From the NCBI RefSeq assembly GCF_000012925.1, contig NC_007517.1, forward strand, positions 1,530,001 through 1,562,000: a DNA stretch of 32,000 nt, in the 5' to 3' direction. The number at the start of each line of letters is the position of its first letter. Position 1 is the stretch's first letter. The notes under the pieces are model-generated. The model was not told the origin of the DNA. It ran no database searches and saw only the letters and a list, made by a program, of their open reading frames with translations. A program made the position numbers and the translations under genes. Origin of the DNA: Geobacter metallireducens GS-15 (GTDB lineage Bacteria; Desulfobacterota; Desulfuromonadia; Geobacterales; Geobacteraceae). Below, one piece after another: positions 7,900-23,148 of the stretch.

Positions 7900-9207
7900 C
7901 TACAGTTCTCCCATCGCTTTTCTGACCCGCGCCGCCGCCACCTGGTAGTCGAAGACGGCGCGGAAATAGTCGGTCCTGATCTGGGTAAGGAGCGTCTGGG
8001 CGTCGATGACGTCGGTCGCGGTCCCCACCTGGGCCTGATAGCGGTCGCGGTTGATGCGCAGATTCTCTTCCCCCTGCTTGATTGCCGTTTCCACGGTCCT
8101 GATCCGCTCGGCGGCAACCCTGGCATCGTTCAGGGACGTTGCCAGTTCAAGGCGGATCTGTTCCCGGGCCTGACGGAGGCTGTCCCGCTGCTTCCTCAGG
8201 TTTGCCACTGCCTGGCGGTATCGCGACGTGGTGGCGAAGCCATCAAAGAGGTTGACGCGCAACCCCACGGTGGCAGCATAGATGGCCTGCTCCCGCGCCT
8301 TGCTGTTCTCCATGTAGTCGATGGTCCCCTGGGCGAAGATCTCCGGGTAGAAGCCGGTCCGGGCTTCGGATACCCCTGCTTCTCCTGCCTCCACCGTCCT
8401 GGTGAGAGAGGCGAGCTCGGGGCGGTTCGCCAGGGCCTTCTCTTCGGCTGTTTCAAGTGGCGGAAGGGACGCCGGGGTATCCTTCTCCTCCAGGTTGGCC
8501 CGGAACGGGAGAGGGCGTCCCGTCAGATAGTTGAGGAAAAGCCAGCGGTTCTCAACGAAGTTTGCCGCCGCGAGACGCCTCTGCCGGCTGTCGGCCAGCT
8601 TCACCTCGGCCTGGAGAAGGTCGTTACGGGTCACCACTCCCTGTTCGTACAGGTTTTGGGCCACTCCCAGATGGTCGGTGCGCTGTACGATCTCTTCGTC
8701 GGCGGCGCCGAGAACCTTTTTCGCTTCAAGGATCCCGTAGTAGGCCTCCACCACCTGGAGGAAGACATCCTTCTCCCGTGCGTCGTAGCTGTGTGTGATC
8801 GCCTCCTGGAGGAGCGATGCCCTCCTGGTGCGGGAAGAGGTGTGGCCGAAGTCGTAGATGGTCTGGGTGGCAGTGACGTTGAAGAATCCGTAAGTGGCGT
8901 CCTGGGTTTCGGTTTCGCGTCCCGCGAAGGAAAAAGCCTGGGGCCTGGCCTGGGCGGTGTATCCCCCCTGGAAATCGAGGCGGGGGAGAAAGCCGCTCTT
9001 GGCCTGGGAAATGTTCTCGGCGGCGATGCGCGTGTCATGGGCCGTTACGGTCAGGTCATAGTTGCCGGCGGCTGCCCGGCGCAGGCACTCAGCAAGGGAA
9101 AGGGTTTCGGCGCGTGCCGTTCCCGCCAGGGAGAGAACCGCCGCCAGGGCCGCAAGGAGTCTCGGTACTGTCGATTGAGGAATGGGTGCATTCTGGTTGT
9201 TCTGCAT
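7900..9207 (-). CDS. TolC-family outer-membrane efflux protein
   Basis: Signal peptide RLLAALAAVLSLAGTARA, then two OEP-type repeats. ATG at 9207 has GGGAGGA 7 nt upstream. Stop is 2 nt before the emrA start, so the three genes form one operon. Confidence 0.85.
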   Translation of the reverse strand: MQNNQNAPIPQSTVPRLLAALAAVLSLAGTARAETLSLAECLRRAAAGNYDLTVTAHDTRIAAENISQAKSGFLPRLDFQGGYTAQARPQAFSFAGRETETQDATYGFFNVTATQTIYDFGHTSSRTRRASLLQEAITHSYDAREKDVFLQVVEAYYGILEAKKVLGAADEEIVQRTDHLGVAQNLYEQGVVTRNDLLQAEVKLADSRQRRLAAANFVENRWLFLNYLTGRPLPFRANLEEKDTPASLPPLETAEEKALANRPELASLTRTVEAGEAGVSEARTGFYPEIFAQGTIDYMENSKAREQAIYAATVGLRVNLFDGFATTSRYRQAVANLRKQRDSLRQAREQIRLELATSLNDARVAAERIRTVETAIKQGEENLRINRDRYQAQVGTATDVIDAQTLLTQIRTDYFRAVFDYQVAAARVRKAMGEL

Positions 9208-9323
9208 GGAGAATCCTCCCGTTACTGGCGCAGTTTCTTGAGGGTGAAGCGCAGGGCGGCACATTCCTCTGCGGTGAGGGGAGAAAGGAATGTTTCCGTC
9301 ACCCGGGCGGCAATGGCGCGGGC

Positions 9324-9351
9324 ATTATACAGACAATCAGTATGCTGTCAA
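9324..9351 (-). promoter_or_regulatory. sigma70-type promoter for the tolC-emrA-emrB operon
   Basis: On the minus strand: TTGACA (9351-9346), 16-nt spacer, TATAAT (9329-9324). Both hexamers are perfect consensus. About 117 nt upstream of the ATG at 9207. Confidence 0.6.
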
Positions 9352-9403
9352 TTTGGAAGCTCAGGACGGAGAGGGATGCAAAGAATCAAGATCAAGAGCC
9401 CCG

Positions 9404-11569
9404 CTATTTTGAATTCTGGACGCCTGAATACGCCTTCTGGATGGCGGATTCAGGTGTCTTTACGAGAGTTGCCCGGTAGAGGGCACGGTAGATCTCCGCA
9501 TTGGCGAGGACCTTCTTCACGTATTCCCGTGTCTCATAGTAGGGGATGTTTTCGATGAACTCGTCATCACGTTGGTAGGGGAGGGTGCGGCGCCAGCGGT
9601 CCACCGGGGTGGAGCCGGCGTTGTAGGCTGCCACGGCAGCCACTGTGTTGCCGTGGTACTGGTTGAGCAGCCCTTTCAGGTGGCGCACGCCGAGGTTGAT
9701 GTTGAAGGCGGGATCGGTGAGGCGCGTGGAGATGTTGGCCCCCTTGCCGTTCACCATTGCCCTGGCGGTGGCCGGCATGAGCTGCATGAGCCCCACGGCC
9801 CCCACGGGGGAGACGACAGTCGGCGAGAAGGTGCTCTCCGCCCTGATGACACCGTAGACGAGCTCTTCCGCTACCCCATGGTCGGTGGCCTGACGGGTTA
9901 CCGCCTCACGGAAGGCCTTTGGATAGAGGAGCCCCCACTGGGTGAGGGAATCCCTGTCAATCCGGCGGGGGAGATTGTCCCGATAGATGGCTGCGGCCGA
10001 GTTGTAGTCTTCCATTTCCAGATAGAGGCGGGCCACTCCCAGGAGAGACTTCTGCTTCAGACCGTTTTTCTTCCTGACGGATGCAAGCTCCTTCCGGGCT
10101 TCGTCGTGGAGTCCCACGGCAATGAGGAGCTTGATACGCTCATACCCGGCGGGCATCGGCAGGGACAATGCAGCCGGCTCGGCCGCCAGGGAAGGGGTTT
10201 CCTCGATGGTATTCAGCGCCGTGCAGGCCCGGCGGCCGTAAAAGGAGAGGGGAGATTCTTCCTGGACGCGGGCTAGCGAAGCGGCAGCCCCCTCCTTGTC
10301 TCCCGCCCCTTCAAGGGCGCGGCCATGCCAGTAGAGGGCCCGCTCCCGGTATTCCGGGATGGTTTGGAGGGCCTTGAATGCGTCGGCTGCCCCCCGGAAG
10401 TCCTTCGTGCCGTAGCGGGCCCACGCCGCCTCCCACGTGGCCCGTTGCCGGAGCTTCACATCGGTGGCAGCGACAAGGAGCCGGTCAAGCAGGGGAAGCT
10501 CTTCCTGATACCGTCCCTGGAATTTGCGGATGAAGGCTGCCTCCAGAAGCGCCTCGTTGGCCAGCTCTCCCCGCGGCGAGGCCTCGGCTATCTTGAGATA
10601 GGCATTGACGGCGTCGTCGCTTTTCCCGATCCCCTCAAGAGCTTTGGCATGCCAGAACCGGGTCTCCTCGGCCAGGGACGGTTTCAGCTCCTTTTCCAGA
10701 AGCCGGGCAAAGGTCCGTTCGGCATCCTTCCGTTGACGGGCCTTGTAAAGGGCCTGACCGCTCTTGAACGTGACCCGGGCAATGAAGTCGGCCGACTGGT
10801 TCGCCAGCGGGATTGCGTCAAAGGTTTTGACGGCCTGCTGGAACCGGCCGAGGCTGTACAGGGTACTTGCTCTCCGGAAAAGCTCATCGGGGGTGTATGG
10901 CGCAGCCGGGAATCCCTGGCGTTCCAGTTGGCGCAGAGCCTCCTCGGCGTCTTCGGCCACCGGCGAGGCAGGGTAGGCGAGCCAGAGATTCCGCAGCTCC
11001 TGAACCGCCTTTGCCTTGTCGCCGAGCCCTTCCCGGCAGCGGGCTGCCTGGTAAATGGCGGTGAGGGAATCCCTCCCCGAGGGATAGCTTTCCACGAACC
11101 GGATGTAGACGGCCTGGGCCTCCTTCAGGTCGCCGCGGGCAAAGAGGATGTCGGCCTGGAGCATCCGTGCCCGGCGGACGAGGGGGCTTTCGGGCCGTTC
11201 ATGGAGGAGCCTCTTCACGGTTTCAAGGGCTTCATCGTGGCGTGCGATGCGATACAGGGCATCAGCCTCCCAGAAGAGCGGGTAGTCGGCCACAAGGGGA
11301 AGCTCCTTTGCCGCCTTGCCGAGCAGTTCGGCTGCATTGACCCACTCTTCGAGCCGGTATGCGGCGACGCCGGCAATCAGGTGCTTTTCCGGAGAGTCGG
11401 CTGCGTCCGTGGCGTTGTCCAGGGCCCCCCGGTTGTCCTTGAGCTTGAGCCGCACGGCGGCCTTGGCGAGTTTTTCGTCGAGTGTGGGGGTAAGGTTCTG
11501 GGAGGAGGCGGAGACAGCCAGACAGAGGAGCAGGGCCGTGGCAAGGAGCAAGCGGTTAAGCATGGGCAT
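9404..11569 (-). CDS. slt: soluble lytic murein transglycosylase (Slt70-like)
   Basis: 721 aa. Signal peptide, long TPR-like helical repeat region, C-terminal SLT domain with VIRAESTFSP (catalytic Glu), GLMQLMPATA and AAYNAG. Confidence 0.9.
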   Translation of the reverse strand: MPMLNRLLLATALLLCLAVSASSQNLTPTLDEKLAKAAVRLKLKDNRGALDNATDAADSPEKHLIAGVAAYRLEEWVNAAELLGKAAKELPLVADYPLFWEADALYRIARHDEALETVKRLLHERPESPLVRRARMLQADILFARGDLKEAQAVYIRFVESYPSGRDSLTAIYQAARCREGLGDKAKAVQELRNLWLAYPASPVAEDAEEALRQLERQGFPAAPYTPDELFRRASTLYSLGRFQQAVKTFDAIPLANQSADFIARVTFKSGQALYKARQRKDAERTFARLLEKELKPSLAEETRFWHAKALEGIGKSDDAVNAYLKIAEASPRGELANEALLEAAFIRKFQGRYQEELPLLDRLLVAATDVKLRQRATWEAAWARYGTKDFRGAADAFKALQTIPEYRERALYWHGRALEGAGDKEGAAASLARVQEESPLSFYGRRACTALNTIEETPSLAAEPAALSLPMPAGYERIKLLIAVGLHDEARKELASVRKKNGLKQKSLLGVARLYLEMEDYNSAAAIYRDNLPRRIDRDSLTQWGLLYPKAFREAVTRQATDHGVAEELVYGVIRAESTFSPTVVSPVGAVGLMQLMPATARAMVNGKGANISTRLTDPAFNINLGVRHLKGLLNQYHGNTVAAVAAYNAGSTPVDRWRRTLPYQRDDEFIENIPYYETREYVKKVLANAEIYRALYRATLVKTPESAIQKAYSGVQNSK

Positions 11570-11770: not shown

Positions 11771-12430
11771 TCAGATAGTAGCATCCACGTTCATCCGGTA
11801 TGTTCCATACTTGAGCCGGGTCAGCACGTTCTTTTCCAGCATAATCTGAAACGTCGCTACGACGGTCGGCTTGCTGGCGCTGAGTGCCTCAGCCACCTCG
11901 TCATAGGTGCCATGGAACAGGTTGTCGGCATCGAGGTGATTGATGACGTACTCCATGATCTCGGCCCGTCTTCCGCCGAGTGTATCGAGAATTTTCAAGA
12001 GGAAATCCCTATTGTCAGGCCCCTGTTTCCGCTCACTACTGGCGGCTTCCTTCTGGGTGGCTATGTCGGACAGGAGTTCGAGCATTTCGTGGAAGTTGAA
12101 CGGTTTCAGAAGGTAGCCGTCCGCCTTGTAGCGAAACGCATCCAGCAGGTATTCCGACTCAGAATGGGCAGATACTATGACGACGGCGACCGACGCATCC
12201 TTCTGCTTTACGGCATTGAGGAGCTCTATGCCTGACAAGCCGGGCATGCGGATGTCGGTGAGCACTATATCCGGGTGATGCTCCTGCAGCGCGGCCAGGG
12301 CCTGGTCGGCGCTACCTACACAGATTGTGTTTTTGCAGAAACTGCTCAGGACCATCTTCATCTGCTCCCGTGCAATCTCCTCGTCGTCCACAAAGAGCAC
12401 CGTCATCTGTTGCAAGGCGGTGACATTCAT
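11771..12430 (-). CDS. response regulator: REC domain plus atypical C-terminal winged-helix-like domain
   Basis: 219 aa. REC motifs LFVDDEE, DIVLTDIRMPGLSG, VIVSAHSE, YLLKPF. The C-terminal ~80 aa (TYDEVAEALSASKPTVVATFQIMLEKNVLTRLKYGTYRMN) looks HTH/wHTH but not OmpR, NarL, NtrC or LytTR class. The ATG overlaps the kinase stop (ATGA, 12427-12430). Confidence 0.85.
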   Translation of the reverse strand: MNVTALQQMTVLFVDDEEIAREQMKMVLSSFCKNTICVGSADQALAALQEHHPDIVLTDIRMPGLSGIELLNAVKQKDASVAVVIVSAHSESEYLLDAFRYKADGYLLKPFNFHEMLELLSDIATQKEAASSERKQGPDNRDFLLKILDTLGGRRAEIMEYVINHLDADNLFHGTYDEVAEALSASKPTVVATFQIMLEKNVLTRLKYGTYRMNVDATI

Positions 12431-14166
12431 ATCTGTTTACCTCCCTCGGTTGTTCTGGCGAACTGCAGGCAGATGCGGGCGCCATAGTGCGTTTCCCCGT
12501 GCAGTTCAAAGGACCTGTTCTCCGCCCAGACCTTCCCCTGGTCCAGATTCTCGACGATCTGGTGGCACAGATACAGTCCCAGTCCTGTGCCGTCGGCCTT
12601 GTCCTTGGTGGTGACATACGGTTCGAAAATGCGTTTGAGCAGATGGTCGGGGATCCCGCCACCGTTGTCCTGGAAGGTGACCGTCACCACCCCTCCCGAC
12701 TCCTCGTTGCAGGAGAGCAGGATGAAGCGGTCACTTTGCACCAGGGAAAGCTGATCGCGCGCATTCAACAGCACGTTTATGGTCAGCTGCACCAGGTCGT
12801 TCACGAAACCCATGGTGTGCACCGGCGTCGTGATCCGGTTCTCGATGGTGACCCGGCTCTGCTCCATGACCGGCGCAACCATCGCTATGGCGCGCTCGAC
12901 GGAACTCTGCAGCTCGATCACGGTCCGGCTGCTGCCCGACATGAGCAGTGAACGCCAGTCATCTATGATGTTAGACATGTATTCGATGTTCTGGTTCGCC
13001 TGGGTAATCTGCTTGCTGAGCAGGGCGTCGTCCAGTTTGCCGTACTGGTTCTGCAGCCCGATGTTCTGAACGATCAGAGAAAGGTTGTAGAGAGGTTGTC
13101 GCCATTGGTGTCCGATGTGTCCCAGCATTTCCCCGAGTGCGCACTGCTTTGACCGCTGGGCCAGCATCTTGTCCTGTTCCGTGATGATGTGCTCATACTT
13201 TCTGAACCCGACCATGTTGATACAGAGCATGACGCAGGCGGTGAGGGCGAAGAACAGCAGCCATGCGTAGAAATATCCCCAGTGCCGGTTCCGCAGCTCA
13301 GTCATGTCGTAGGCGACAAGATATTTACCGACTTCGCGACCTAGGTTGTCTCTAAGTACCTGGGACGTACTCACCAGGTAATACTTGTCTCCGATTTTGA
13401 TGTCGTTTTTCGCCCATCTGAAATCAATCCTGTCTTTGAACTGGTTGAAGAACGCGGCGTCGTTGGATTTCAGCTTTTTATAATAGTCATAGACATATTC
13501 CTCGGAATCCGTCTTGTCCCCGGTGTCAAATTCAAGGAGTTTCCCATTGGAGAAGATGGCTGTCTTTACGTCGTGTAAAAACCATTTCAGATTGTAGTGA
13601 AAAAATGACAGGTCCACACCTATCTCGATCGTTCCTTCCACATTTGAACGAGCGTCCCGTACAGGAAGAACAATGCAGAAGTAGAGGGGAACGATGTTGG
13701 TCTCATACCCGTAGGTGTAGTTTTTCGTGGCAAAGACCTCTTTGCTAACGTTCGGTCTTAATTCCTCGGGGTCATGGGTGATCGACGGCGGTGTCATATG
13801 ATATCTGAGTTTTCCATCGCCGTCATAGATGAGGACCGAGATCACCGGCACATAGCGTTTCCCGAAGTCGTAGAAAGCGTGATTGGCCACCTTCTCCAGG
13901 GCTTCTGCGTCGCCTGCTTTCAGCAGTTCGGCGAAGTGCTTTTGTTTTGCGATGTCGCTTACGTAGTTGACCAGGCGCGAACAGAGATACTCCGATTCGC
14001 TGTCGTGGGCATGCTTGATGAATGAGTTGATTTTGTTGGCGAAATAGGCGTAGTCGGAAGTCCTCTTGTACAGATCCATCAGGGAAAAGAAGCAGAACAT
14101 GCAGAAGAGCAGGATATAGGTAACGATGACGATGCGTTTTTTATTGGCTTCGATAAATTTCAACAT
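12427..14166 (-). CDS. sensor histidine kinase with large extracytoplasmic Cache-like domain
   Basis: TM1 IVIVTYILLFCMFCFFSLM, a loop of about 270 aa, TM2 YFYAWLLFFALTACVMLCINMVGF. H-box GHIGHQWRQPL, N-box NVLLNARDQ, G-boxes DNGGGIP and GTGLGLYL. ATG 14166 (MLKFIEANKK) is preferred over the extended start at 14226. Confidence 0.85.
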   Translation of the reverse strand: MLKFIEANKKRIVIVTYILLFCMFCFFSLMDLYKRTSDYAYFANKINSFIKHAHDSESEYLCSRLVNYVSDIAKQKHFAELLKAGDAEALEKVANHAFYDFGKRYVPVISVLIYDGDGKLRYHMTPPSITHDPEELRPNVSKEVFATKNYTYGYETNIVPLYFCIVLPVRDARSNVEGTIEIGVDLSFFHYNLKWFLHDVKTAIFSNGKLLEFDTGDKTDSEEYVYDYYKKLKSNDAAFFNQFKDRIDFRWAKNDIKIGDKYYLVSTSQVLRDNLGREVGKYLVAYDMTELRNRHWGYFYAWLLFFALTACVMLCINMVGFRKYEHIITEQDKMLAQRSKQCALGEMLGHIGHQWRQPLYNLSLIVQNIGLQNQYGKLDDALLSKQITQANQNIEYMSNIIDDWRSLLMSGSSRTVIELQSSVERAIAMVAPVMEQSRVTIENRITTPVHTMGFVNDLVQLTINVLLNARDQLSLVQSDRFILLSCNEESGGVVTVTFQDNGGGIPDHLLKRIFEPYVTTKDKADGTGLGLYLCHQIVENLDQGKVWAENRSFELHGETHYGARICLQFARTTEGGKQI

Positions 14167-14745
14167 GGGGCGCGTCCCTCTTGGGGGGTACTCGTGATTG
14201 TCGAGCCGGTGCTCCTGGCGGCGCAAGGGTACTCCAGTCGGCGGTGAGCACCAGCATGTAAAACTAATTTAGTTTACTTCACCATAACAATAAAAGTAAA
14301 CTAAAAATGAAAAGGTTCCCCGGAATACCCTGAAATCCCTCCTGTCTCCCTCTCGTAAAACCTCTCACCTTTAAAGTGCTTAACCAAATAATAGCAATAA
14401 ATCTAGCTGGTTGCGACGATTTATTCATGCCATGCTCCCGCAGGATAAATGCACTGACACAGCTGCTGGTGGGCGCATGCAAATTTACTAAAAAAATGCT
14501 TGACACATCGTTTTTGGTTTTGTTAAATAAACTAAAAACGATTTGGATAATAATTTAAAACCAGAAAGATAGTTGATGCCGCCTGGTATATGTATTGTGG
14601 CTTGCGTGGTTCAATTAAGTTGTCTAACTAAGGGTGACGCTATCACCAGGCCAGCAATCGGAGAAAGGAGGAGAACATCACACACCACACGTCATACGAG
14701 GCCAGGATTTGCAGAGCCAACTACACACTATCAAGGAGAAAGATC
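14167..14745. promoter_or_regulatory. AT-rich divergent control region with repeated AAACTAA motif
   Basis: 579 bp between divergent operons. Hand count for 14261-14320 gives 15/60 G+C. AAACTAA occurs at 14261-14267 (+), 14269-14275 (-; the two form palindrome AAACTAA-T-TTAGTTT), 14298-14304 (+) and 14529-14535 (+). Variant TAACTAA at 14625-14631. The 11-mer TAAACTAAAAA is exact at 14297-14307 and 14528-14538. Confidence 0.5.
14500..14528 (+). promoter_or_regulatory. candidate sigma70 promoter for the dsbL-dsbI-assT cluster
   Basis: TTGACA (14500-14505), 17-nt spacer, TTAAAT (14523-14528), with an A-rich tract upstream. One TAAACTAAAAA copy starts at the last base of the -10. Implies a leader of about 210 nt. 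Confidence 0.4.
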
Positions 14746-15411
14746 ATGTCATTCAAATTTGTCAAAACAATCGCCAAAAGTCTCGCACTGGTAGCTCTGT
14801 TCGCCGGCAGCTGCTTCGCCTTCACCGAGGGGACCGATTACGTGAAGCTTGCGAAACCGATCCCGAACGCCCAGGGGACGCTGATCAAGGTGTTCAGCTA
14901 CGACTGCCCCTTCTGCTACAAGTACGACAAGAAGATCACGCCGAACCTGGTTCCCAAGCTGCCGAGCGATCTCAAGTTCCGCCCCTTCCATCTGAAGACC
15001 AAGGGTAAATACGGCGTCCAGGGAAGCGAGCTCTTCGCCGTGCTGCTGCTCAAGGATCAGAAGGCCGGCCTCTCCGACCGCGATCTGTATGGCCCCAAGT
15101 CACTCCTGAAGAAGGCCAAGATGGCCTACTACACCGCCTACCACGACAAGAAAGAGCGCTGGGATGCGGGCCCCGACGCCTACCTGAAGACCGGTCTCGA
15201 CGCAGTCGGCATGAGCAAAGCAGAATTCGACAAGGCGAAGGCAGATCCCAAGGTCAAGGCGCTGCTGAAGGAGTGGGATGCCTCCTATGACGTGGCAAAG
15301 GTCCAGGGCGTTCCCGGCTTCGTCGTCAACGGCAAGTACCTCATCATGACCAAGAGCATCACCTCCATAGACGGCATGCTGAAGCTTATCAACGAGCTGA
15401 AGACCAAATAA
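14746..15411 (+). CDS. dsbL: periplasmic DsbA-family thiol:disulfide oxidoreductase, DsbL-like (CPFC active site)
   Basis: 221 aa. Signal peptide SLALVALFAGSCFA. CPFC encoded at 14905-14916. C-terminal VQGVPGFVVNGKY (cis-Pro loop). AAGGAG lies 7 nt upstream of the ATG. Confidence 0.8.
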   Translation: MSFKFVKTIAKSLALVALFAGSCFAFTEGTDYVKLAKPIPNAQGTLIKVFSYDCPFCYKYDKKITPNLVPKLPSDLKFRPFHLKTKGKYGVQGSELFAVLLLKDQKAGLSDRDLYGPKSLLKKAKMAYYTAYHDKKERWDAGPDAYLKTGLDAVGMSKAEFDKAKADPKVKALLKEWDASYDVAKVQGVPGFVVNGKYLIMTKSITSIDGMLKLINELKTK

Positions 15412-15422
15412 GGAGACGCGTC

Positions 15423-16133
15423 GTGAAACTATCAGAAATGTTCGGCAACTTCAGGTCGGACCCGGCAGGAACCATCAGCCAGTGGCAGGACAAGCGGTTT
15501 CTCTGGATCTTCATGGCGGTGCTCAGTCTGTTCATGGTTATCCTGGCCCACTCCGTGTTCCAGATCTGGCTCTACATGAGACCCTGCGAACAGTGCGTCT
15601 ACATAAGGCTTGCCTTCTTCGCCATGGCCTTCGGCGGCGTCGTCGCGGCCATCAAGCCCTCAAACCCCGGCTTGAAGATCGTCGGCTACCTGTTCGCCAT
15701 CTGGGGAAGCTTCAAAGGTGTCCTCTACAGCATAAAGCTCAATAAGATTCACCACGCCGCCCACAGCGACGACATCTTCGGCGTGCAGGGGTGCTCACCG
15801 GAGCCCACCTTCCCGTTCCACCTGCCGCTGGATAAGTGGTCTCCGGAATGGTTCAAGCCGACGGGCGACTGCGGCTACGACAACCCGATCATTCCCGACG
15901 GAGTCCAACTGAGCGCCATGCAGAAGGCCATCACCGACTTCTATTCCGAAGGGTGGTACCTCTGGCCTCCCTCCCACTTCATGAACATGGCGCAGTGCAC
16001 CCTCATCACCTTCGGCGTAATCCTCCTGTTCCTGGTGGTGGCAGCAGCCTGCTGGATCGTCACACTGGTGCGACGCAAGCGCCAATCCGCGACACACGAA
16101 GAAACTTCCAGCTGCTCTGGCAAGTTGGCATAA
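15423..16133 (+). CDS. dsbI: DsbB-family membrane disulfide oxidoreductase (DsbI-like partner)
   Basis: 236 aa, four TM segments. First periplasmic loop CEQC (15585-15596). Second loop carries a Cys pair (GCSPEP ... GDCGYD). GTG start 7 nt after AGGAG (15411-15415). Confidence 0.8.
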   Translation: MKLSEMFGNFRSDPAGTISQWQDKRFLWIFMAVLSLFMVILAHSVFQIWLYMRPCEQCVYIRLAFFAMAFGGVVAAIKPSNPGLKIVGYLFAIWGSFKGVLYSIKLNKIHHAAHSDDIFGVQGCSPEPTFPFHLPLDKWSPEWFKPTGDCGYDNPIIPDGVQLSAMQKAITDFYSEGWYLWPPSHFMNMAQCTLITFGVILLFLVVAAACWIVTLVRRKRQSATHEETSSCSGKLA

Positions 16134-16190
16134 CGACAATCCCGGCGTGAGGGGCGGCATGTCCGCCGCAGACAAAAAAAGGAGAACAGT

Positions 16191-18068
16191 ATGAACTGTC
16201 GAAAAACAGCATTGTTGAAAACCGGGAGAGTGGCGCGGCTGGTGTTGTGCTCAGCCATGCTCGGAGCAGCGATCCCGACCATGGCACTCGCCATCGGCGG
16301 TGCGAGTGGCGCGCATGTGGACTATCAAGTGCAGGGAAAACTCGGCGAGGTCATCATGAACCCCTATGACATCGCCCCCCTGACCGCCATCATCAAAAAC
16401 GGCGGCTACGTCCTTAAGGACGTCACGGTGCGGATCGTTCCCAAGAAAGATGGGCAGGAAATCAAGTACCAGGTCGCCAACAAGCATCTCCTGACCCACG
16501 GCGGCATCCCGGTCTTCGGCATGTACCCGGACTACGTGAATACGGTCGAGGTCGAATATTCCAGGCTGTACAACGGCAAGTGGGAGCAGGCCAAGGAAAG
16601 CTACACGCTCTATACCCCCCCTGTCTATACAGAGCCGAATGCCACGAAAACACAAAAGGCGGCTCTCTTTTCCGGGGCTGACGTCAAGAAGGTCGACAAG
16701 AAGTTCAGCGACCGGCTCTATTTCGTCAACAACTTCCTGCACAAGGCAGGCAAGGGGACCCGGGCGGTCTGGAACAACCCGACAGGCGGCGCCCTGGAGT
16801 GGAACTACTATCCGCAGAATTTCATCGTCGACACCAAGGGCGAAGTCCGCTGGTACATGAACGCCAACCCCATCTATGACCTGAAGTCGATCTATAACGC
16901 CGGTGTCATGATGGGCTTCAAGCAGAACAACGACGGCGCCATGAGCTGGGGTTTCGGCCAGCGCTACGTCAAGTACGACATCATGGGGAAAGAAGTTTTC
17001 AATCGTGAGCTTCCTGCCGGCTACAACGACTTCTCCCACTCCATGGACAATTCCCCCAACGGTAACTACTTCCTGCGGGTGGGCAGCTCCAACCTCAAGC
17101 GCGCTGACGGCAAGAATGTCCGCACCGTCCGCGACGTGATTATCGAAGTCGACCCCAGCAGCGGCCTCGTTCAGGATGAGTGGCGCCTCTTCGACATCCT
17201 TGACCCCTATCGTGACGTCAATTTTAAGGTGCTGGACCAGGGGGCCGTATGCCTGAACATCGACGCCAGCAAGGCCGGTCATACCATGAGCGCCGAAGAC
17301 CTGGCCAAGCAGGACGCAAATGATAAATTCGGCGACATCGTCGGTGTCGGCCCCGGCCGGAACTGGGCCCACGTGAACAGCGTCGATCATGACGCCGAAG
17401 ACGATTCCATCATCATCAGCTCCCGCCACCAGTCGGCAGTTATCAAGATCGGCCGGGACAAGCAGATCAAGTGGATCATGGGCAGCCCCGAAGGGTGGAA
17501 GAAGGAATACCAGGGCAAACTCCTGACCCCGGTCGACTCCAAGGGGAACAAGATCGAATGCGAGGCCGGAGGCTCCAAGTGTCCCGGTTACGAGAATGAC
17601 GAGGGTGGTTTTGACTGGACCTGGACGCAGCATACCGCGTTTAAGATCGATAGCAAATCCAAAGGCGACATCATTTATGTGAGCGTCTTTGACAACGGCG
17701 ACAGCCGCGGCATGGAGCAGCCGGCCCTGCCGAGCATGAAGTACTCCCGTGCCGTCATCTACAAGATCGACCAGAAGAAGATGACCGTCGAACAGATCTG
17801 GGAGTTCGGCAAAGAGCGCGGCAACGGCTGGTACAGCCCGGTCACCTCGCTGACTGAGTACCAGACAGACAAGGACTCCGTGTTTGTCTATTCGGCAACG
17901 GCTGGTGCTGATTTCGATATCAATACGGGTGCATTCAAGACCGACCCCAATCCTTACATCATGGAGTTCAATTACGGCTCCAAAGAGCCGGCAGTCGAGA
18001 TTCAGCTGAAGGATACGACCGGCTACCAGGCCATGCCGTTCAGCGTGGACAAGGCCTTCACCAAGTAA
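16191..18068 (+). CDS. assT: periplasmic arylsulfate sulfotransferase (ASST family)
   Basis: 625 aa with signal peptide (LCSAMLGAAIPTMALA). ASST-like motifs NWAHVNSVDHD, IIISSRHQSAVIKI, WTWTQHTAFKI. Closely spaced Cys pair CEAGGSKC (17559-17582). AGGAG lies 7 nt upstream. Confidence 0.85.
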   Translation: MNCRKTALLKTGRVARLVLCSAMLGAAIPTMALAIGGASGAHVDYQVQGKLGEVIMNPYDIAPLTAIIKNGGYVLKDVTVRIVPKKDGQEIKYQVANKHLLTHGGIPVFGMYPDYVNTVEVEYSRLYNGKWEQAKESYTLYTPPVYTEPNATKTQKAALFSGADVKKVDKKFSDRLYFVNNFLHKAGKGTRAVWNNPTGGALEWNYYPQNFIVDTKGEVRWYMNANPIYDLKSIYNAGVMMGFKQNNDGAMSWGFGQRYVKYDIMGKEVFNRELPAGYNDFSHSMDNSPNGNYFLRVGSSNLKRADGKNVRTVRDVIIEVDPSSGLVQDEWRLFDILDPYRDVNFKVLDQGAVCLNIDASKAGHTMSAEDLAKQDANDKFGDIVGVGPGRNWAHVNSVDHDAEDDSIIISSRHQSAVIKIGRDKQIKWIMGSPEGWKKEYQGKLLTPVDSKGNKIECEAGGSKCPGYENDEGGFDWTWTQHTAFKIDSKSKGDIIYVSVFDNGDSRGMEQPALPSMKYSRAVIYKIDQKKMTVEQIWEFGKERGNGWYSPVTSLTEYQTDKDSVFVYSATAGADFDINTGAFKTDPNPYIMEFNYGSKEPAVEIQLKDTTGYQAMPFSVDKAFTK

Positions 18069-18083
18069 CCATCCTGCACAAAA

Positions 18084-18115
18084 CCTCAGGCTGGAGGCTC
18101 TCCTTCAGCCTGAGG
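18084..18115 (+). terminator. strong hairpin without U-tract between assT and the thioredoxin gene (attenuator or processing site)
   Basis: CCTCAGGCTG (18084-18093) pairs perfectly with CAGCCTGAGG (18106-18115). Inner pairs G.U, A-T, G-C, G-C close a CTCT tetraloop. No T-run follows. Confidence 0.4.
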
Positions 18116-18164
18116 CACCGTACGATTCCACCGCACCGTAAACCGCATCAGAGAGGTTGTCTCC

Positions 18165-18671
18165 ATGAACCAATTGCTCCGCTACATCTGCGCCTGCCTG
18201 TTCACCCTGACGGTTCTCGCCGTGGCGGCGCCGGGCAAAGCCGAGAGTGATGCACCCCTCGTCCGAACCGGGGCGCTGGCCCCGAACTTCAAGCTGCCCA
18301 CCCTCTCGGGTGAGAACAAAAGTCTCGCCCAGTATCGCGGCAAGATCGTCCTCGTGAACTTCTGGGCTTCCTGGTGCCCCTACTGCCGCGACGAGATGCC
18401 TTCCATGGACCGGCTGGTCAAATCCTTCCCCAAGGGGGACCTGGTGGTACTGGCGGTCAACGTCGAAAAAAGATTTCCCGAAAAGTACCGCCGGGCCCCC
18501 GTATCGTTCAACTTTCTGAGCGACGCCACCGGCCAGGTGCAGCAGCGCTATGGCGCCAACCGCCTCCCGGACACGTTCATTGTCGACCGCAAGGGGATTA
18601 TCCGGCAGCGGGTGACCGGCGGCATCGAGTGGGACGCCCCCAAGGTCGTCAGCTACCTGAAATCACTGTAG
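18165..18671 (+). CDS. TlpA/ResA-like periplasmic thioredoxin (redoxin family)
   Basis: 168 aa. Signal/anchor CLFTLTVLAVAAPGKA. GKIVLVNFWASWCPYCRDEMP with WCPYC at 18375-18386. LPDTFIVDRKGIIR. Confidence 0.85.
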   Translation: MNQLLRYICACLFTLTVLAVAAPGKAESDAPLVRTGALAPNFKLPTLSGENKSLAQYRGKIVLVNFWASWCPYCRDEMPSMDRLVKSFPKGDLVVLAVNVEKRFPEKYRRAPVSFNFLSDATGQVQQRYGANRLPDTFIVDRKGIIRQRVTGGIEWDAPKVVSYLKSL

Positions 18672-18684
18672 CGGAGATACCATC

Positions 18685-19434
18685 ATGGACTTTGGTTCCG
18701 ATATCACCGTCTGGATCGCATTCTCCGCAGGATTCCTTTCCTTTTTCTCACCCTGCGTTCTGCCGCTTATCCCTTCCTATATGACCTATATCACCGGGCT
18801 CTCCTTCGGCCAGTTGCAGGAGGCACATCCGGGCGCGAAGGTGCGTCTGGTCGTTCTGGCCCACTCCGTGGTCTTCGTCCTCGGATTCTCCGTGGTCTTC
18901 GTCGCGATGGGAGCCCTTGCCGGAGCAGCCTCCTCCACCTTCCAGACCGTCATGAAGGACGGCCTGGTCTGGCTGCAGCGTGCTGGCGGCTTGCTCATCT
19001 TCATGTTCGGCGTCCACATGTCAGGGCTGTTTCACTTCGGCCTCCTGCTCGGGGACAAACGGGTCCAGATCCAGAATAAGCCGGGCGGACTGGCAGGGAC
19101 GTTCCTCGTGGGGATCGCCTTTGCCGCCGGTTGGACCCCCTGCATCGGTCCCATACTCGGGGCGATCCTTGCCATGGCGGCCGGCACGTCTGGATCAACC
19201 GCAACCAGCATGCTGCTGCTCGGAAGCTATGCTGCGGGGTTGGGAATACCGTTCGTCATCTCGGGTTTGCTGTTCCACGGTTTTCTCGATATTTTCAAGC
19301 GCTTCAAGTCGCACATCCGGAAGATGGAGTTCTTTACAGGGTTATTGCTGATGTCAGTAGGCATCCTTCTCTTCTTCGGTCTCTTCAACAACTTGACCAC
19401 CTTGCTTTACCAGTGGCTCCCGATGGGGGCCTGA
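18685..19434 (+). CDS. ccdA: CcdA / DsbD-transmembrane-domain thiol:disulfide electron transporter
   Basis: 249 aa, six TM segments. Both conserved Cys motifs are present: FSPCVLPLIPSY and GWTPCIGPILG. Starts 13 nt after the thioredoxin gene. Confidence 0.9.
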   Translation: MDFGSDITVWIAFSAGFLSFFSPCVLPLIPSYMTYITGLSFGQLQEAHPGAKVRLVVLAHSVVFVLGFSVVFVAMGALAGAASSTFQTVMKDGLVWLQRAGGLLIFMFGVHMSGLFHFGLLLGDKRVQIQNKPGGLAGTFLVGIAFAAGWTPCIGPILGAILAMAAGTSGSTATSMLLLGSYAAGLGIPFVISGLLFHGFLDIFKRFKSHIRKMEFFTGLLLMSVGILLFFGLFNNLTTLLYQWLPMGA

Positions 19435-19547
19435 ATCAACCTGCAGTGGAGTGTATCAATGCCTTTCTGGCCAGGTTGAAGCAACATCCAACAGCAAACG
19501 ACAGGATCGCCATCCTCTGCACGCACCCCAGATCAAAGGAGTACGTC

Positions 19548-20462
19548 ATGAAATTCAGCAAGCGTATCATCCCGCTTTCCCTCGCGGCACTTTGTACCTG
19601 CGCCGGCCTTTCCTGGGGTGCTGATGCCCCTGCCGCCCCCAAGCCCTTCGGGCCGGCTATCTCCGCCTTCGGTCCTGCGGGAACAGGTTTCCCGGTGGGG
19701 AAGCTTGGAGTCCTTCTCAATTATCAGTATTGTGAAACCGACGGTATCCGCAAGGGCAGCAGTGAAATTAACGAAAATGTCAAGCTTACTAAGAATGTCG
19801 GGGTGGTGAAATTCCGCTATGGCATCACGGAAGGTCTTGACGTCCGCACGGCGACCCCCCTCTATACCGTTTACAAAAAAAATAAGCTTACCGGCACAGG
19901 GGAGCATCTGGGGTGGATCGGTGATACCGCCATTGCCCTGCACAAGGTGCTCATGAACCAGTCAAAGGGTTCGATGTTTGATCTGGCGGTAGACGTCGGC
20001 CTGGTCGTGCCGACAACTGATGTCAGCAGCAAAAGCATAGACTTCGTCGGCAACGGTGCCTGGGGCACCGGCGGCGCCGTCGGCCTTACCTACTCGACAG
20101 GTTCACACCGTCTCGACCAGGAGATTCATGTGTACACCTTTACCGAAGGGGCTCACGATTACAGGAAGCCTATGTACGTCCGGAGCACTACCGCCTGGGG
20201 CTACGCCGTGAACAACTATTTCGACATGGGAGCCGAGTCACAGTTCGACTGGAATGACGCTAGCGAGAAGAACGGCAAGAGCCAGAACGATACCAAGAAC
20301 GAGTGGTACGCCGGGCCGAAGGTGGCGTTCAAGTACAAGCCTGCTGGATTCGCGGCGGGCTTGGCGGCCATGTTCCCCATGGTTCGCTGGTACGAGGCCA
20401 ACACTCCCTCTGAGGGGTTCCGGATTGAGTTGAAACTGAGCAAGACGTTTGACTTGATGTGA
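19548..20462 (+). CDS. putative outer-membrane beta-barrel channel (possibly Phenol_MetA_deg-type)
   Basis: 304 aa from ATG 19548 (AAAGGAG 6 nt upstream). Signal peptide ALCTCAGLSWG/ADAP. Alternating amphipathic beta-strand pattern rich in Y/G/T/N (VLLNYQYCE, VVKFRYGIT, AVGLTYSTG, WGYAVNNYF, KVAFKYKP). The family assignment is from memory. Confidence 0.6.
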   Translation: MKFSKRIIPLSLAALCTCAGLSWGADAPAAPKPFGPAISAFGPAGTGFPVGKLGVLLNYQYCETDGIRKGSSEINENVKLTKNVGVVKFRYGITEGLDVRTATPLYTVYKKNKLTGTGEHLGWIGDTAIALHKVLMNQSKGSMFDLAVDVGLVVPTTDVSSKSIDFVGNGAWGTGGAVGLTYSTGSHRLDQEIHVYTFTEGAHDYRKPMYVRSTTAWGYAVNNYFDMGAESQFDWNDASEKNGKSQNDTKNEWYAGPKVAFKYKPAGFAAGLAAMFPMVRWYEANTPSEGFRIELKLSKTFDLM

Positions 20463-20628
20463 GAACATGGTGGGCCGCTCCACCAACTCCGATTCCAGTA
20501 GGCTGAGCAGATGCCGTAACGCGACGACCGGATCAGCCTGCCGAATCCTGCCGATTCCCGTTGCTCTTCTTAAAAGGTCTGCAACAAGATCCTGCCCGCC
20601 ACCGGACAGTAGTGAGTGCATATACGCA

Positions 20629-20657
20629 TTGACTCCTGTGGCGCCCCTGTGCATAGT
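20629..20657 (+). promoter_or_regulatory. possible sigma70 promoter for rnr
   Basis: TTGACT (20629-20634), 17-nt spacer, CATAGT (20652-20657). About 36 nt upstream of the rnr ATG. Confidence 0.3.
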
Positions 20658-20692
20658 AGCCCCGTGCAACGGGTAACGGGAGAGGATTGATT

Positions 20693-22972
20693 ATGAAACG
20701 GAATCGGGAAACGGTGCAGGCGGTGATCCGCGAGCGGGGCGGTTCTGCCCCTTTCCGGGAGCTGATGCTGGCTTTCGGGGTGACCAAGGGGGAGCGGCAG
20801 AGTTTCAAGGGGTTCGTGGACAAACTCGTCACTGACGGCCATCTCGTGCGACTCAGGGGAAACCGCTATGCCCTGGCCGATGGGGAGAATCTCGTGACCG
20901 GGCGGCTCACGTGCCACCCGGACGGCTACGGTTTCGTCATTCCCGAAGGGGGAGGGGACGACGTCTATATCCCGGCCCGGGCCCTTGCCGGGAGCATGCA
21001 CGGTGACACGGTGGAGGTGCGGGTCGAGACCTTCAAGGCCGGCGGCAAGAAGGAGGGGCGGATCGTGCGGACCGTGACGCGGGGGCAAACCCGTGTCGTG
21101 GGGCGGTTCGAGCAACTCAAGGGATTCGGGGTCGTGGTTCCCGATGAAACCCGCATCAGCCAGCAGATTGTCATCTCTCAGCAGGGAATCGGTCGGGCCA
21201 AGGGGGGACAGACGGTCGTGGCCGAGATCACCGCCTACCCCACGGAGAAGCGCAGGCCCGAGGGGCGCATCGTGGAGGTGCTGGGGTGGCCCGACGACCC
21301 TGAAGTGGAAGTCCGGACCATTATCGCCAAGCACGGGCTCCCCTTCGAGTTCCCCGCCGAGGTGCTGGACGAGGCCCGGGCCGTTCCTCAGGCCATCGGG
21401 GAGAAGGATCTGCAGGGGCGTACCGATCTGCGGGAGATCGTGACCGTCACCATCGACGGCGAGACGGCCCGGGACTTCGACGATGCCGTGGCGGTCCGGA
21501 AGGAGCGGGGGGGGAACATCCGCCTCTGGGTCTCCATCGCCGATGTCTCCCATTACGTGAAGCCCGACGCGCCCCTGGACCGGGAGGCGTACCTGCGGGG
21601 GACCTCGGTCTACTTTCCCGACCGCTGTATCCCCATGCTCCCCGAGGAGCTTTCCAACGGCATCTGCTCCCTGAACCCCCGGGTGGAGCGGCTCACCATG
21701 ACGGCGGAGATGCTCTTCACCCGCAGCGGCACCATGAAAGAGGCCACTTTCTACCCGAGCGTAATCAAAAGCGACGCCCGGCTCACCTACACCATTGTAA
21801 AAAAGATTCTCGTGGACGGCGATGCCGAGGCCATGGCGGCTCACCAGGAGCTGGTCCCTCACCTGGAAGTCATGCGGGAGTTGGCCCAGAGCCTCACGGA
21901 GAAGCGGCGTAAGCGGGGGAGCATCGACTTTGATCTCCCCGAGCCCCAGATTATCCTCGATCTCCAGGGGGAGACCGTCGACATCATCCAGGCCGAGCGG
22001 AACCTGGCCCACCGGATCATCGAGGAGTTCATGCTGGCCGCCAACGAGGCGGTTGCATCCCACATCGAGGCAAAGGGAATCCCCTCCCTCTACCGGGTCC
22101 ACGAGCCCCCTGACCCGGCAAAGCTCATCGACTTCCAGGAGTTTATCTTCAATTTCGGCTTCCACTTCCGGATGGAGGGGGACCGGGTGGAGCCGGCGGA
22201 GATCCAGCGGCTTCTGGTGGAGACCGAGGGGACGCCGGAGGAGCGGATGATCAACCAGGTGCTCCTGCGGTGCATGAAGCAGGCCCGCTACAGTCACGAG
22301 AACCTGGGGCATTTCGGGCTTGCGGCCCGCTGTTACACCCACTTCACGTCCCCCATCCGCCGCTACCCTGACCTGGTCGTCCACCGCATCCTCAAGGCGC
22401 TCCTGGCCGGGAAGATTACCGACAAGGAGATCGCACGGCTGGAGACAACCCTCCCCGAAACGGCGGAGCAGACCAGCCGGCGGGAGCGGGTCGCCATGGA
22501 GGCGGAGCGGGAGATCGTGGCCCTCAAAAAGGCCCAGTTCATGCTCCAGAAGATCGGGGAGGACTTCGACGGCTACATCACCGGGGTCACGTCCTTCGGC
22601 CTTTTTGTGGAGCTGACGGAGATATTCGTGGAGGGGATGGTCCACATCTCCACCATGGGTGACGACTACTACCGCTATGTGGAGAAACAGCATTCCCTGG
22701 TGGGTGAGCGGACGAAGGAGACCTACCGGATCGGCGACAAGGTGCGGGTGACCGTGGCGGCGGTGAGCATCGAGAAGAAGCAGGTCGAGTTCGTGCTGGC
22801 CGGGCTTCATGAGCGGCGGCCCGGTGCCTCGTCGCCGCCGGGGTCGGAGGAGTACCCGCGGATTGCCGTCACGGGGAAGCGCCCCCGGGTTCTTGAAGAG
22901 CGACGACGCCAGTCGAAGGGAGATAAGAAGGGAAGCGGCAAGGGGAAGGGGCCACGCGGGAGGCGCCGGTAA
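20693..22972 (+). CDS. rnr: ribonuclease R (3'-5' exoribonuclease)
   Basis: Cold-shock-type N-terminus (CHPDGYGFVIPEGG), RNB motif TIDGETARDFDDAVAV, S1 domain GYITGVTSFGLFVEL, Lys/Arg-rich tail. ATG 20693 lies 6 nt after GGGAGAGGA; the track start (TTG 20687) is 2 codons longer. Confidence 0.95.
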   Translation: MKRNRETVQAVIRERGGSAPFRELMLAFGVTKGERQSFKGFVDKLVTDGHLVRLRGNRYALADGENLVTGRLTCHPDGYGFVIPEGGGDDVYIPARALAGSMHGDTVEVRVETFKAGGKKEGRIVRTVTRGQTRVVGRFEQLKGFGVVVPDETRISQQIVISQQGIGRAKGGQTVVAEITAYPTEKRRPEGRIVEVLGWPDDPEVEVRTIIAKHGLPFEFPAEVLDEARAVPQAIGEKDLQGRTDLREIVTVTIDGETARDFDDAVAVRKERGGNIRLWVSIADVSHYVKPDAPLDREAYLRGTSVYFPDRCIPMLPEELSNGICSLNPRVERLTMTAEMLFTRSGTMKEATFYPSVIKSDARLTYTIVKKILVDGDAEAMAAHQELVPHLEVMRELAQSLTEKRRKRGSIDFDLPEPQIILDLQGETVDIIQAERNLAHRIIEEFMLAANEAVASHIEAKGIPSLYRVHEPPDPAKLIDFQEFIFNFGFHFRMEGDRVEPAEIQRLLVETEGTPEERMINQVLLRCMKQARYSHENLGHFGLAARCYTHFTSPIRRYPDLVVHRILKALLAGKITDKEIARLETTLPETAEQTSRRERVAMEAEREIVALKKAQFMLQKIGEDFDGYITGVTSFGLFVELTEIFVEGMVHISTMGDDYYRYVEKQHSLVGERTKETYRIGDKVRVTVAAVSIEKKQVEFVLAGLHERRPGASSPPGSEEYPRIAVTGKRPRVLEERRRQSKGDKKGSGKGKGPRGRRR

Positions 22973-23148
22973 ACCCGGATATTCCATCAGACGGTGCGAA
23001 GCGCCTGCACGAGCCCTGCCGGACGCTTTCCGGCATCTTGCCGCCCGTTATCCTCACCAATAGCCCTGCTATTGCCTCGTCAAACGGACGCCAATCCGTT
23101 CGGAAATCGCCTCGGCAGCATCTCGTGCCCTGATGAAAAATCCGGGTT
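22972..23148 (+). other. highly structured element directly after the rnr stop (3' UTR structure or ncRNA candidate)
   Basis: Three nested collinear helices: 22972-22980/23140-23148 (9 bp), 22985-22990/23130-23135 (6 bp), 23007-23013/23122-23128 (7 bp). Local hairpins at 22993-23005, 23018-23034 and 23083-23100. Confidence 0.35.

Follow-up and report, generated by a model that had tools for sequence, protein, structure and literature searches.

Why should the gene for an aryl-sulfate sulfotransferase (ASST) stand between genes for thiol oxidation and genes for thiol reduction, next to a predicted outer-membrane barrel and facing a two-component system? The question is raised by a locus of Geobacter metallireducens GS-15, positions 11771 to 20462 of a 32,000-nucleotide stretch of its genome (contig NC_007517.1, positions 1,530,001 to 1,562,000), referred to here as the window. 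In E. coli, ASST needs the oxidase pair DsbL/DsbI, and the physiological role, natural substrates, and acceptors of bacterial ASSTs that are independent of 3'-phosphoadenosine-5'-phosphosulfate (PAPS) are still poorly understood (PMC13426309).

The genes of the locus have been listed before. Aklujkar et al. described in 2009 proteins homologous to DsbA, DsbB, DsbE, and DsbD (Gmet_1380, 1381, 1383, and 1384) together with a two-component system (1378-1379), an arylsulfotransferase (1382), and a conserved unknown protein (1385), reported the presence of the cluster in Geobacter FRC-32 as well, and took it for a connection with cytochrome c biogenesis (PMC2700814). The cluster, to which an earlier note on this DNA made from the sequence alone had drawn attention, is therefore no new sighting; the new part is the co-inheritance of the channel, the sensor pair, and the thiol-reducing branch with ASST. 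Neither the ASST-centered interpretation nor the comparative points given below were found in the searchable literature.

Our analysis indicates that the locus is probably a mobile, self-sufficient, and inducible module for aromatic sulfate esters and phenols in the periplasm, that is, a Desulfuromonadales variant of the assT-dsbL-dsbI clusters of enterobacteria and Campylobacter.

The ASST core of the locus

Six of the products (regulator, DsbL, ASST, TlpA, CcdA, and barrel) were looked up and are exact G. metallireducens proteins (accessions ABB31612 to ABB31619); by the gene list in PMC2700814, the module corresponds to Gmet_1378 to Gmet_1385. A response regulator and a kinase gene on the reverse strand face the genes for DsbL, DsbI, ASST, a TlpA-like protein, CcdA, and the barrel on the forward strand. 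These eight intact genes were also obtained from independent gene calls on identical contigs, which matched the open reading frame listing. The earlier note had counted nine adjacent genes, which is a miscount; an ancestral ninth gene, for a rhodanese, survives only as a relic (19458-19520). It was right about two divergent units around one control region, a 579-bp spacer with conserved promoter and operator-like elements, and profile searches with each product bore out every family assignment, including that of 16191 to 18068 to ASST.

The ASST gene (16191-18068, forward strand) encodes a predicted periplasmic, PAPS-independent enzyme that matches the family models of both the six-bladed propeller (Pfam PF05935, Arylsulfotrans, E = 4.5e-141) and the N-terminal Ig-like domain (PF17425, Arylsulfotran_N, E = 7.6e-30). 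Residues 48 to 606 match the E. coli AssT structure (PDB 3ELQ, E = 4.2e-130). The catalytic His436 of the E. coli enzyme and the residues that bind the sulfuryl group, His252, His356, Asn358, and Arg374 (PMC13426309), are all kept, as H481, H283, H394, N396, and R412. Similarly, the Cys418/Cys424 pair is found as C457/C464 and is invariant in 17 homologues. The window ASST is predicted to be catalytically intact and to have the disulfide-forming cysteines. We also considered whether extra cysteines in the Geobacter-type enzyme could explain a reductant and rejected this, the enzyme having three cysteines, the same as that of E. coli.

DsbL (14746-15411, forward strand), predicted to be a periplasmic dithiol oxidase, has a CPFC active site and a signal peptide and matches the DsbL structures of Salmonella (3L9U, E = 2.9e-76) and E. 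coli (3C7M, E = 1e-74), compared to about 1e-10 for general DsbA. DsbI (15438-16133, forward strand), the predicted quinone-linked membrane reoxidizer of DsbL, belongs to the DsbB family (Pfam DsbB, E = 1.6e-24) and passes the NCBIfam DsbI equivalog NF003304 (E = 1.2e-112; 374.6 bits versus a cut-off of 212), while DsbB models stay below their cut-offs; CEQC and a second cysteine pair are present. The DsbL, DsbI, and ASST genes are adjacent. The ASST and DsbL/DsbI core recognized in the earlier note thus stands, with its CPFC motif, DsbL structure matches near 1e-75, and a DsbI equivalog that is passed.

This core resembles the assT-dsbL-dsbI systems of uropathogenic E. coli CFT073 and Salmonella (Grimshaw 2008 and Malojcic 2008/2014, as presented in PMC13426309), in which the gene for a periplasmic PAPS-independent ASST, alike in catalytic residues and in disulfide cysteines, adjoins genes for a CPFC DsbL and a DsbI. 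The gene order is different, dsbL-dsbI-assT in the window and assT-dsbL-dsbI in Yersinia loci. Compared to E. coli and Salmonella, the window module has in addition TlpA/CcdA, a COG4313 channel, and a two-component system of its own (and, in its ancestral form, a rhodanese), and its host otherwise has no DsbA/DsbB (PMC2700814).

Recurrence of the gene set in other genera

A scan of species-representative genomes provided 79 ASST loci, among 439 found in GTDB, and these were compared with the window proteins by tblastn. The complete eight-gene set was found at 77 to 95% protein identity in Geomonas edaphica, G. azotofigens, G. propionica, G. limicola, G. oryzae, and Citrifermentans bremense. 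In a less closely related Geobacteraceae genome (locus L011), the set is found at lower identity and in the order ASST-barrel-TlpA-CcdA, the same order is seen on a metagenomic contig (L089), and in L084 and L088 the set recurs with a rhodanese added. Cluster look-ups added Geotalea daltonii, Geoanaerobacter pelophilus, and some G. sulfurreducens strains. Recurrence of the gene set in other genera is far beyond chance.

The flanks differ in every genome examined. Only in the window is the module placed between slt and rnr, where there is no integrase or tRNA gene; elsewhere it is flanked by the catalase-peroxidase KatG, by GGDEF proteins and an IS200-type transposase, by a sigma-54 regulator, or by a type II NADH dehydrogenase (NDH-2) with a single-stranded DNA-binding protein. 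The high identity between genera, the scattered occurrence, and the change of flanks together argue that the module spreads horizontally as a unit. The earlier note had proposed that neighborhoods be compared, and indeed the two-component system, TlpA/CcdA, and the barrel adjoin ASST in many genomes, through changes of order and of flanks; an association kept despite reordering and new surroundings strengthens the reading as a functional unit.

A compositional case for recent acquisition was rejected: the G+C dip of the module comes from codon positions 1 and 2, and its G+C content at third positions (0.71 to 0.84) largely overlaps that of the flanking genes (0.77 to 0.87). Neither att-like sites nor flanking direct repeats were found around 11.5 to 20.8 kb, and a tRNA scan of the window found none and hence no tRNA-linked island signature.

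In loci of enteric bacteria, Sutterella, and most Campylobacter, ASST is present, in part together with DsbL/DsbI, and the extras are all absent. Campylobacter jejuni dsbA2-dsbB-astA (PMC4152235) likewise has a DsbA/DsbL-like oxidase and a DsbB-family partner beside ASST, a layout also seen in L021, but no reductant, channel, or two-component system, and many Campylobacter loci carry 2 to 5 tandem ASST paralogues. Three of them (L022, L016, and L020) have arrays of 3 to 5 paralogues in one orientation, 54 to 73% identical to the query; the array directly follows DsbL-DsbI in L022, and DsbL-DsbI precede it in L016. These arrays suggest a diversified substrate range in gut and oral Campylobacter.

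The thiol-reducing branch

Downstream of the ASST gene lies the gene for a TlpA/ResA-like periplasmic thioredoxin-fold protein, the predicted reductant (18165-18671, forward strand; WCPYC; Pfam AhpC-TSA and Redoxin). A crystal structure of this very protein exists already: it matches PDB 3HDC ("thioredoxin family protein") with E = 2.7e-98, and the 3HDC chain sequence (P0162, labeled G. metallireducens) shares 100% identity with it across 88% of its length. Another entry of the thioredoxin family, 3KCM, is related more distantly (E = 1.7e-29). The window protein stays under the NCBIfam cut-offs for ResA (91.5 versus 170), TlpA (76.8 versus 230), and DsbE (61.5 versus 123); judged by its sequence, it has the fold and the CXXC motif in common with these named groups but stands outside them. 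Next to it is the gene for CcdA (18685-19434, forward strand), a predicted DsbD-type membrane electron conduit (Pfam PF02683, DsbD_TM, E = 4.2e-15) with both PC motifs, FSPC and WTPC. In the clusters examined, ccdA always adjoins the TlpA orthologue.

Among TlpA homologues, those with at least 56% identity form a tight group, and the next ones are found only at 50% or below. The orthologues at or above 56% lie in an ASST cluster in all 13 loci with readable context (the window, L005 to L009, L011, L013, L084/L085, L086, L088, and L089), while two relatives sampled just below the gap (49 to 50% identity) are not in ASST clusters. The TlpA/CcdA reducing branch therefore belongs to the module.

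The interpretation offered in 2009, that Dsb-like genes for c-type cytochrome biogenesis merely lie beside an arylsulfotransferase, a two-component system, and an unknown protein (PMC2700814), has in its favor that the best NCBIfam matches of the TlpA-like protein are ResA, TlpA, and DsbE, cytochrome maturation proteins. These matches are all under the equivalog cut-offs, however, and the confinement of the TlpA orthologues to ASST clusters in 13 of 13 loci argues against TlpA/CcdA being neighboring cytochrome-maturation genes. DsbL and DsbI, in turn, are close to the ASST-specific pair, and the set is conserved through reordering and flank changes. We consider mere adjacency very improbable. 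The membrane-anchored or periplasmic CXXC protein of thioredoxin fold with a DsbD_TM conduit is a feature shared with ResA/CcdA, CcmG/DsbD, and Bradyrhizobium TlpA, but the window protein differs from these by its scores below the equivalog cut-offs, its WCPYC motif, its orthologues confined to ASST clusters, and the lack of heme-handling genes nearby.

The locus had been credited in the earlier note with oxidizing and reducing disulfide branches. As a description (DsbL/DsbI and TlpA/CcdA), this is right. One way to explain the role of the reducing branch is redox insulation, in which TlpA/CcdA would counteract an extremely oxidizing DsbL in a cytochrome-rich periplasm otherwise devoid of DsbA/DsbB, would keep apocytochrome CXXCH motifs and single-cysteine proteins (rhodanese, Cys354 of ASST) reduced, and would take no part in sulfuryl transfer. 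We hold this to be rather unlikely, although several observations agree with it. A CXXC thioredoxin fold with CcdA is a classic reducing pathway, and all TlpA/CcdA clusters whose contigs reach far enough also carry DsbL/DsbI. Enteric and Campylobacter ASST loci have no dedicated reductant, and these bacteria are assumed to have a DsbD or CcdA of their own. In Bacillus subtilis, ResA/CcdA are dispensable once BdbCD is removed. The host would fit as well, since DsbL/DsbI are the sole DsbA/DsbB-type genes reported for the G. metallireducens genome and G. sulfurreducens lacks them (PMC2700814). Against this, another CcdA and a DsbC/G are found elsewhere in the genome (PMC2700814), and loci L012 and L014 have DsbL/DsbI and a rhodanese without adjacent TlpA/CcdA. 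Further evidence against insulation came from the cytoplasmic ASST clusters described below.

A decayed rhodanese gene

Between ccdA and the barrel gene of the window, tblastn detected a relic of a periplasmic rhodanese gene (19458-19520, forward strand; E = 7e-4), which is also visible as a nucleotide match in the alignment of the ccdA-barrel spacer. It covers about residues 75 to 95 of 147, including the active-site cysteine, both ends being deleted, and its translation (NAFLARLKQHPTANDRIAILC) shares 14 of its 21 residues, among them the catalytic cysteine, with the intact rhodaneses of Geomonas. An intact gene occupies the same place in L005, L006, L009, L013, L084, and L088 and encodes a single domain of 147 residues with a signal peptide and an invariant active-site cysteine in a CR(S/T)GNRS loop. 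Elsewhere, the rhodanese follows ccdA (L086) or lies between the kinase gene and dsbL in the Desulfuromonas-type loci (L012, 4401-4850; L014, 1936-2385). G. propionica and C. bremense retain only the last few rhodanese codons, a remnant other than that of the window, and loss in these genomes was therefore independent. As judged from these remnants, the ancestral module had a ninth gene, a rhodanese, that has decayed in G. metallireducens; this frequent ninth member was missing from the component list of the earlier note.

The TlpA-CcdA-rhodanese trio of the sister loci has parallels. GlpE and PspE are thiosulfate:thioredoxin sulfurtransferases, and TsoB is a rhodanese/DsbD fusion-like selenoprotein; like these, the trio brings together a rhodanese, a thioredoxin-type reductant, and a DsbD-type conduit. 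Unlike them, it consists of three separate proteins in an ASST operon, with the rhodanese only a relic in the window, and the window CcdA matches the NCBIfam TsoB model (E = 7.6e-10) far below its cut-off.

The outer-membrane channel and its contexts

The last gene of the forward operon (19548-20462, forward strand) encodes a predicted outer-membrane channel of the COG4313/Phenol_MetA_deg family (Pfam PF13557, E = 1.8e-15; 58.1 bits versus a cut-off of 22) with a signal peptide. Its AlphaFold2 model (predicted local distance difference test, 84.5; predicted template modeling score, 0.78) has as best Foldseek match the COG4313 channel of Pseudomonas putida (4RL8; E = 4e-14, TM score of 0.67 to 0.77), to which it is 16 to 17% identical in structural alignment. 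Pput2725 of P. putida F1 (PDB 4RL8; PMC4493636) and PSN_2688 of the syringate operon (PMC12314914) share its Pfam family and fold and are likewise encoded in operons for aromatic-compound processing. These comparators go with ring-cleavage pathways, however, whereas the window subfamily goes with sulfate-ester enzymes.

This subfamily is small (28 clusters at 44% identity or more). Outside window-type clusters, its members lie near ASST or sulfatase in 4 of 5 sampled loci. In L092 and L093, a LysR gene is followed by genes for a Na/sulfate-family symporter, a thioredoxin (CGPC), an ASST without signal peptide and hence cytoplasmic, a thioredoxin reductase (CAIC), and the barrel, and L096 has the same genes in another arrangement. 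In L095 (10001-15859 of metagenome contig ERZ28615902), the order is LysR, barrel, Na/sulfate-family symporter, sulfatase, thioredoxin, a small open reading frame, and thioredoxin reductase, the sulfatase taking the place of ASST. The same barrel protein is found on an NCBI-assembly contig (L094), where an rve-type integrase-domain gene comes after a truncated symporter gene. The most distant homologue (44% identity; L091, Desulfocurvus sp., 6124-10918) follows genes for a FAD-binding oxidoreductase and two multiheme cytochromes c, one of which is fused to a cytochrome b domain. Judged by gene context, sulfate esters or the phenols formed from them are the compounds that the barrel subfamily most likely lets through. 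In L086 (172-5513), the order is ASST, an Alginate_exp (AlgE-like) barrel, TlpA, CcdA, and rhodanese; this barrel substitutes for the displaced COG4313 channel, arguing that the need is for a channel as such. We infer that an outer-membrane channel is a required part of such ASST systems.

The cytoplasmic ASST clusters bear directly on insulation against DsbL: they have no DsbL and still carry thioredoxin and thioredoxin reductase, in two different arrangements, so that the reductant appears to follow ASST rather than DsbL, which argues against pure insulation. A thioredoxin-type reductant accordingly goes with ASST in both compartments, as TlpA/CcdA in the periplasm and as thioredoxin and thioredoxin reductase in the cytoplasm.

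Could this reductant take part in catalysis? The sulfo-histidine of ASST might give its sulfuryl group to a protein thiolate (the rhodanese cysteine, or the nucleophilic cysteine of TlpA or thioredoxin), and the S-sulfocysteine would be resolved by a CXXC partner to release sulfite, as in the thioredoxin-dependent half-reaction of adenosine-5'-phosphosulfate (APS)/PAPS reductase; the net reaction would be aryl sulfate plus two electrons to phenol plus sulfite. This would agree with a thioredoxin-type reductant beside ASST in both compartments through independent gene arrangements and with the invariant cysteine in the rhodanese CR(S/T)GNRS loop, the rhodanese active site being built to hold an S-SO3 group beside a thiolate. 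The physiological acceptors of these enzymes are not known (PMC13426309), and in the searchable literature we found no paper joining aryl sulfotransferase, thioredoxin reductase, and sulfite, and nothing relevant on ASST with rhodanese or with thioredoxin reductase. Thiol acceptors of ASST have no biochemical precedent, however, the rhodanese was lost in G. metallireducens, and sulfite released into the Geobacter periplasm would have no clear fate. Moreover, L095 pairs the same set of barrel, DASS symporter, thioredoxin, and thioredoxin reductase with a hydrolytic sulfatase, an enzyme that sets sulfate free without need of a thiol, and the LysR regulators beside the cytoplasmic versions fit ordinary sulfur assimilation with thioredoxin and thioredoxin reductase serving APS/PAPS reductase. 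The sulfatase variant and the LysR regulators thus argue for ordinary sulfur scavenging in the cytoplasmic systems. We therefore see a catalytic role of the reductant as improbable.

The sensor-regulator pair and the control region

The two genes on the reverse strand encode the putative sensory part of the module. The kinase gene (12427-14166) overlaps the regulator gene (11771-12430) by 4 bp, which implies translational coupling, and the phospho-acceptor Asp and acidic pocket of the receiver (DDEE...LTDIRMP...KPF) and the kinase H-box (GHQWRQPL) can be read from the translations. The kinase has two transmembrane segments, a periplasmic Cache-like domain, and a HisKA/HATPase core (HATPase_c, E = 4e-16; HisKA, 0.0028, dCache_3, 3.4e-4, and dCache_1, 8e-4, these three below Pfam thresholds). 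Of the Cache-type kinase claimed before, the histidine kinase stands, whereas the Cache assignment is left with matches under threshold; dCache_3 is also weak in the L084 orthologue.

The unusual output class ascribed earlier to the regulator was borne out. A receiver domain (Pfam Response_reg, E = 3.3e-26) is joined to a RepL-like winged helix (PF05732, E = 2e-09, above the gathering score), an architecture also present in divergent loci; in three divergent orthologues, the output domain scores 37.6 to 40.5 bits against the RepL gathering score of 20.3. Such output domains are rare, with 105 representative matches among 1.84 billion proteins. About 13 of the 105 are 213 to 236 residues long with the match at the C terminus, and 8 of 9 scanned proteins combine a receiver and a RepL-like domain above the Pfam threshold. 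No solved structure was found for the output domain by sequence search.

A Helicobacter locus (L024) has DsbL-DsbI-ASST-barrel and a Cache kinase. Its two-component system was rejected as an orthologue of that of the window, because likeness is confined to the kinase core and the regulator is OmpR-type; being unrelated beyond that core, it argues that sensor-regulator pairs were recruited more than once.

Across seven genomes, the 579-bp spacer between kinase gene and dsbL (45% G+C) shows little conservation outside two blocks. The first is a palindrome, O1 (14268-14305; TTTAGTTTACTT-N14-AAGTAAACTAAA), with perfect 12-nt arms about 100 bp upstream of the kinase start, and could be an operator and/or the -35/-10 promoter of the kinase-regulator operon. 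The second comprises a predicted sigma-70-type dsbL-operon promoter (14500-14545, forward strand; -35 TTGACA at 14500-14505, 17-nt spacer, -10 TTAAAT at 14523-14528), overlapped by a palindrome, O2 (14504-14545), whose 17-nt arms are 88% complementary. The TTGACA box and nearly the whole TTTTGGTTTTGTTAAATAAAC block are identical in the seven genomes. TAAACYAAAA occurs four times in the 32 kb, always inside O1 and O2, versus 0.87 expected. Distant loci have similar elements: L011 carries GGTTTA-N6-TAAACC over its -10 element, and the GTTTACTT...AAGTAAAC palindrome is also found in L012 and L014, there downstream of the dsbL promoter and not upstream. The cognate winged-helix regulator is the obvious candidate to bind O1 and O2.

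A consensus promoter/terminator scan gave counts no higher than in shuffled sequences; since it demands A at position 2 of the -10 element, it missed the dsbL promoter (TTAAAT). The scan showed no terminator-like site in the forward-strand intergenic gaps, which measure 26, 57, 96, 13, and 113 bp from dsbL to the barrel gene. The dsbL leader of about 210 nt has conserved sequence blocks and no conserved RNA fold; a riboswitch or attenuator was rejected (consensus fold of -0.36 kcal/mol, no covarying pairs), and an Rfam scan of the whole window gave no match. The leader also contains a direct repeat (14645-14664, ACCAGGCCAGCAATCGGAGA; 14696-14715, ACGAGGCCAGGATTTGCAGA; 51 bp apart), both copies of which lie inside blocks conserved across the seven genomes. 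In a microarray study, Gmet_1380-1381 were down-regulated on benzoate relative to acetate (PMC1924859).

Genes around the module

The module is bordered by genes for a lytic transglycosylase (slt, 9404-11569, reverse strand) and RNase R (rnr, 20687-22972, forward strand). The surroundings are of a housekeeping type, with an efflux trio of major facilitator superfamily, membrane-fusion, and OEP proteins upstream (5207-9264, reverse strand) and genes for TatC, RibF, a TMEM260-like protein, shikimate dehydrogenase, and a PilB-type ATPase downstream (to 29578-31326, forward strand). An open frame of 805 codons antisense to RNase R (20570-22987, reverse strand), rich in Pro, Leu, Gly, and Arg, was rejected as a gene, being the usual shadow frame of a high-G+C gene.

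Discussion

How would such a module work? We propose that the COG4313 channel admits aryl sulfates and/or phenols and that the kinase senses a periplasmic aromatic compound of that kind, upon which the phosphorylated regulator would bind the TAAACYAAAA palindromes and control both operons. DsbL/DsbI would form the ASST disulfide in a host without general DsbA/DsbB. Reducing power from the cytoplasm would pass by way of CcdA and TlpA to a thiol partner in the pathway, which ancestrally may have been the periplasmic rhodanese that decayed in G. metallireducens.

Several points weigh against this proposal. To our knowledge, known ASST chemistry needs no reductant, so that TlpA/CcdA are not predicted by it and lack an explanation; in the Desulfuromonas-type loci L012 and L014, a rhodanese is present with no TlpA/CcdA within the contig, and at least two losses of the rhodanese took place. 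Members of the barrel subfamily also occur away from ASST, L091 having none within 10 kb. On the regulatory side, the Cache scores of the kinase are below gathering (dCache_3, 20.7 versus 25.7; dCache_1, 19.4 versus 45), O1 and O2 differ in half-site spacing, and O1 could be a promoter only. Finally, what points to co-transcription from dsbL to the barrel gene is spacing and the lack of terminator-like sites between the genes.

The earlier note had seen in the locus a complete unit for sensing, import, and transformation. Co-inheritance across genera strengthens the functional-unit part of this claim, while sensing and import are deduced from gene content. Its suggestion of a role with quinone or humic electron acceptors found no support: nothing links the module to it, and related clusters carry sulfate-family symporters, a sulfatase, and thioredoxin systems. 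The company that the barrel keeps argues for sulfate-ester handling rather than respiration.

There is a slim chance that in the cell ASSTs act together with a thioredoxin-type reductant (TlpA/CcdA alone or with a rhodanese, or thioredoxin and thioredoxin reductase), passing the sulfuryl group to a protein thiol from which it is released as sulfite. If true, organic sulfate esters would yield sulfite for assimilation or respiration by an ATP-independent "aryl-sulfate reductase" route, and ASSTs would at last have a natural function. These enzymes matter in uropathogens, gut bacteria, and biocatalysis, although their physiological role is poorly understood (PMC13426309), and the comparative pattern offers a testable lead on it, consisting of a channel subfamily, a sensor-regulator pair with operator candidates, and a thiol reductant. 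For G. metallireducens itself, the standing reading of Gmet_1380-1384 as cytochrome c biogenesis genes is corrected, and the sole DsbA/DsbB-type oxidase of this organism would have come as part of a mobile ASST module.

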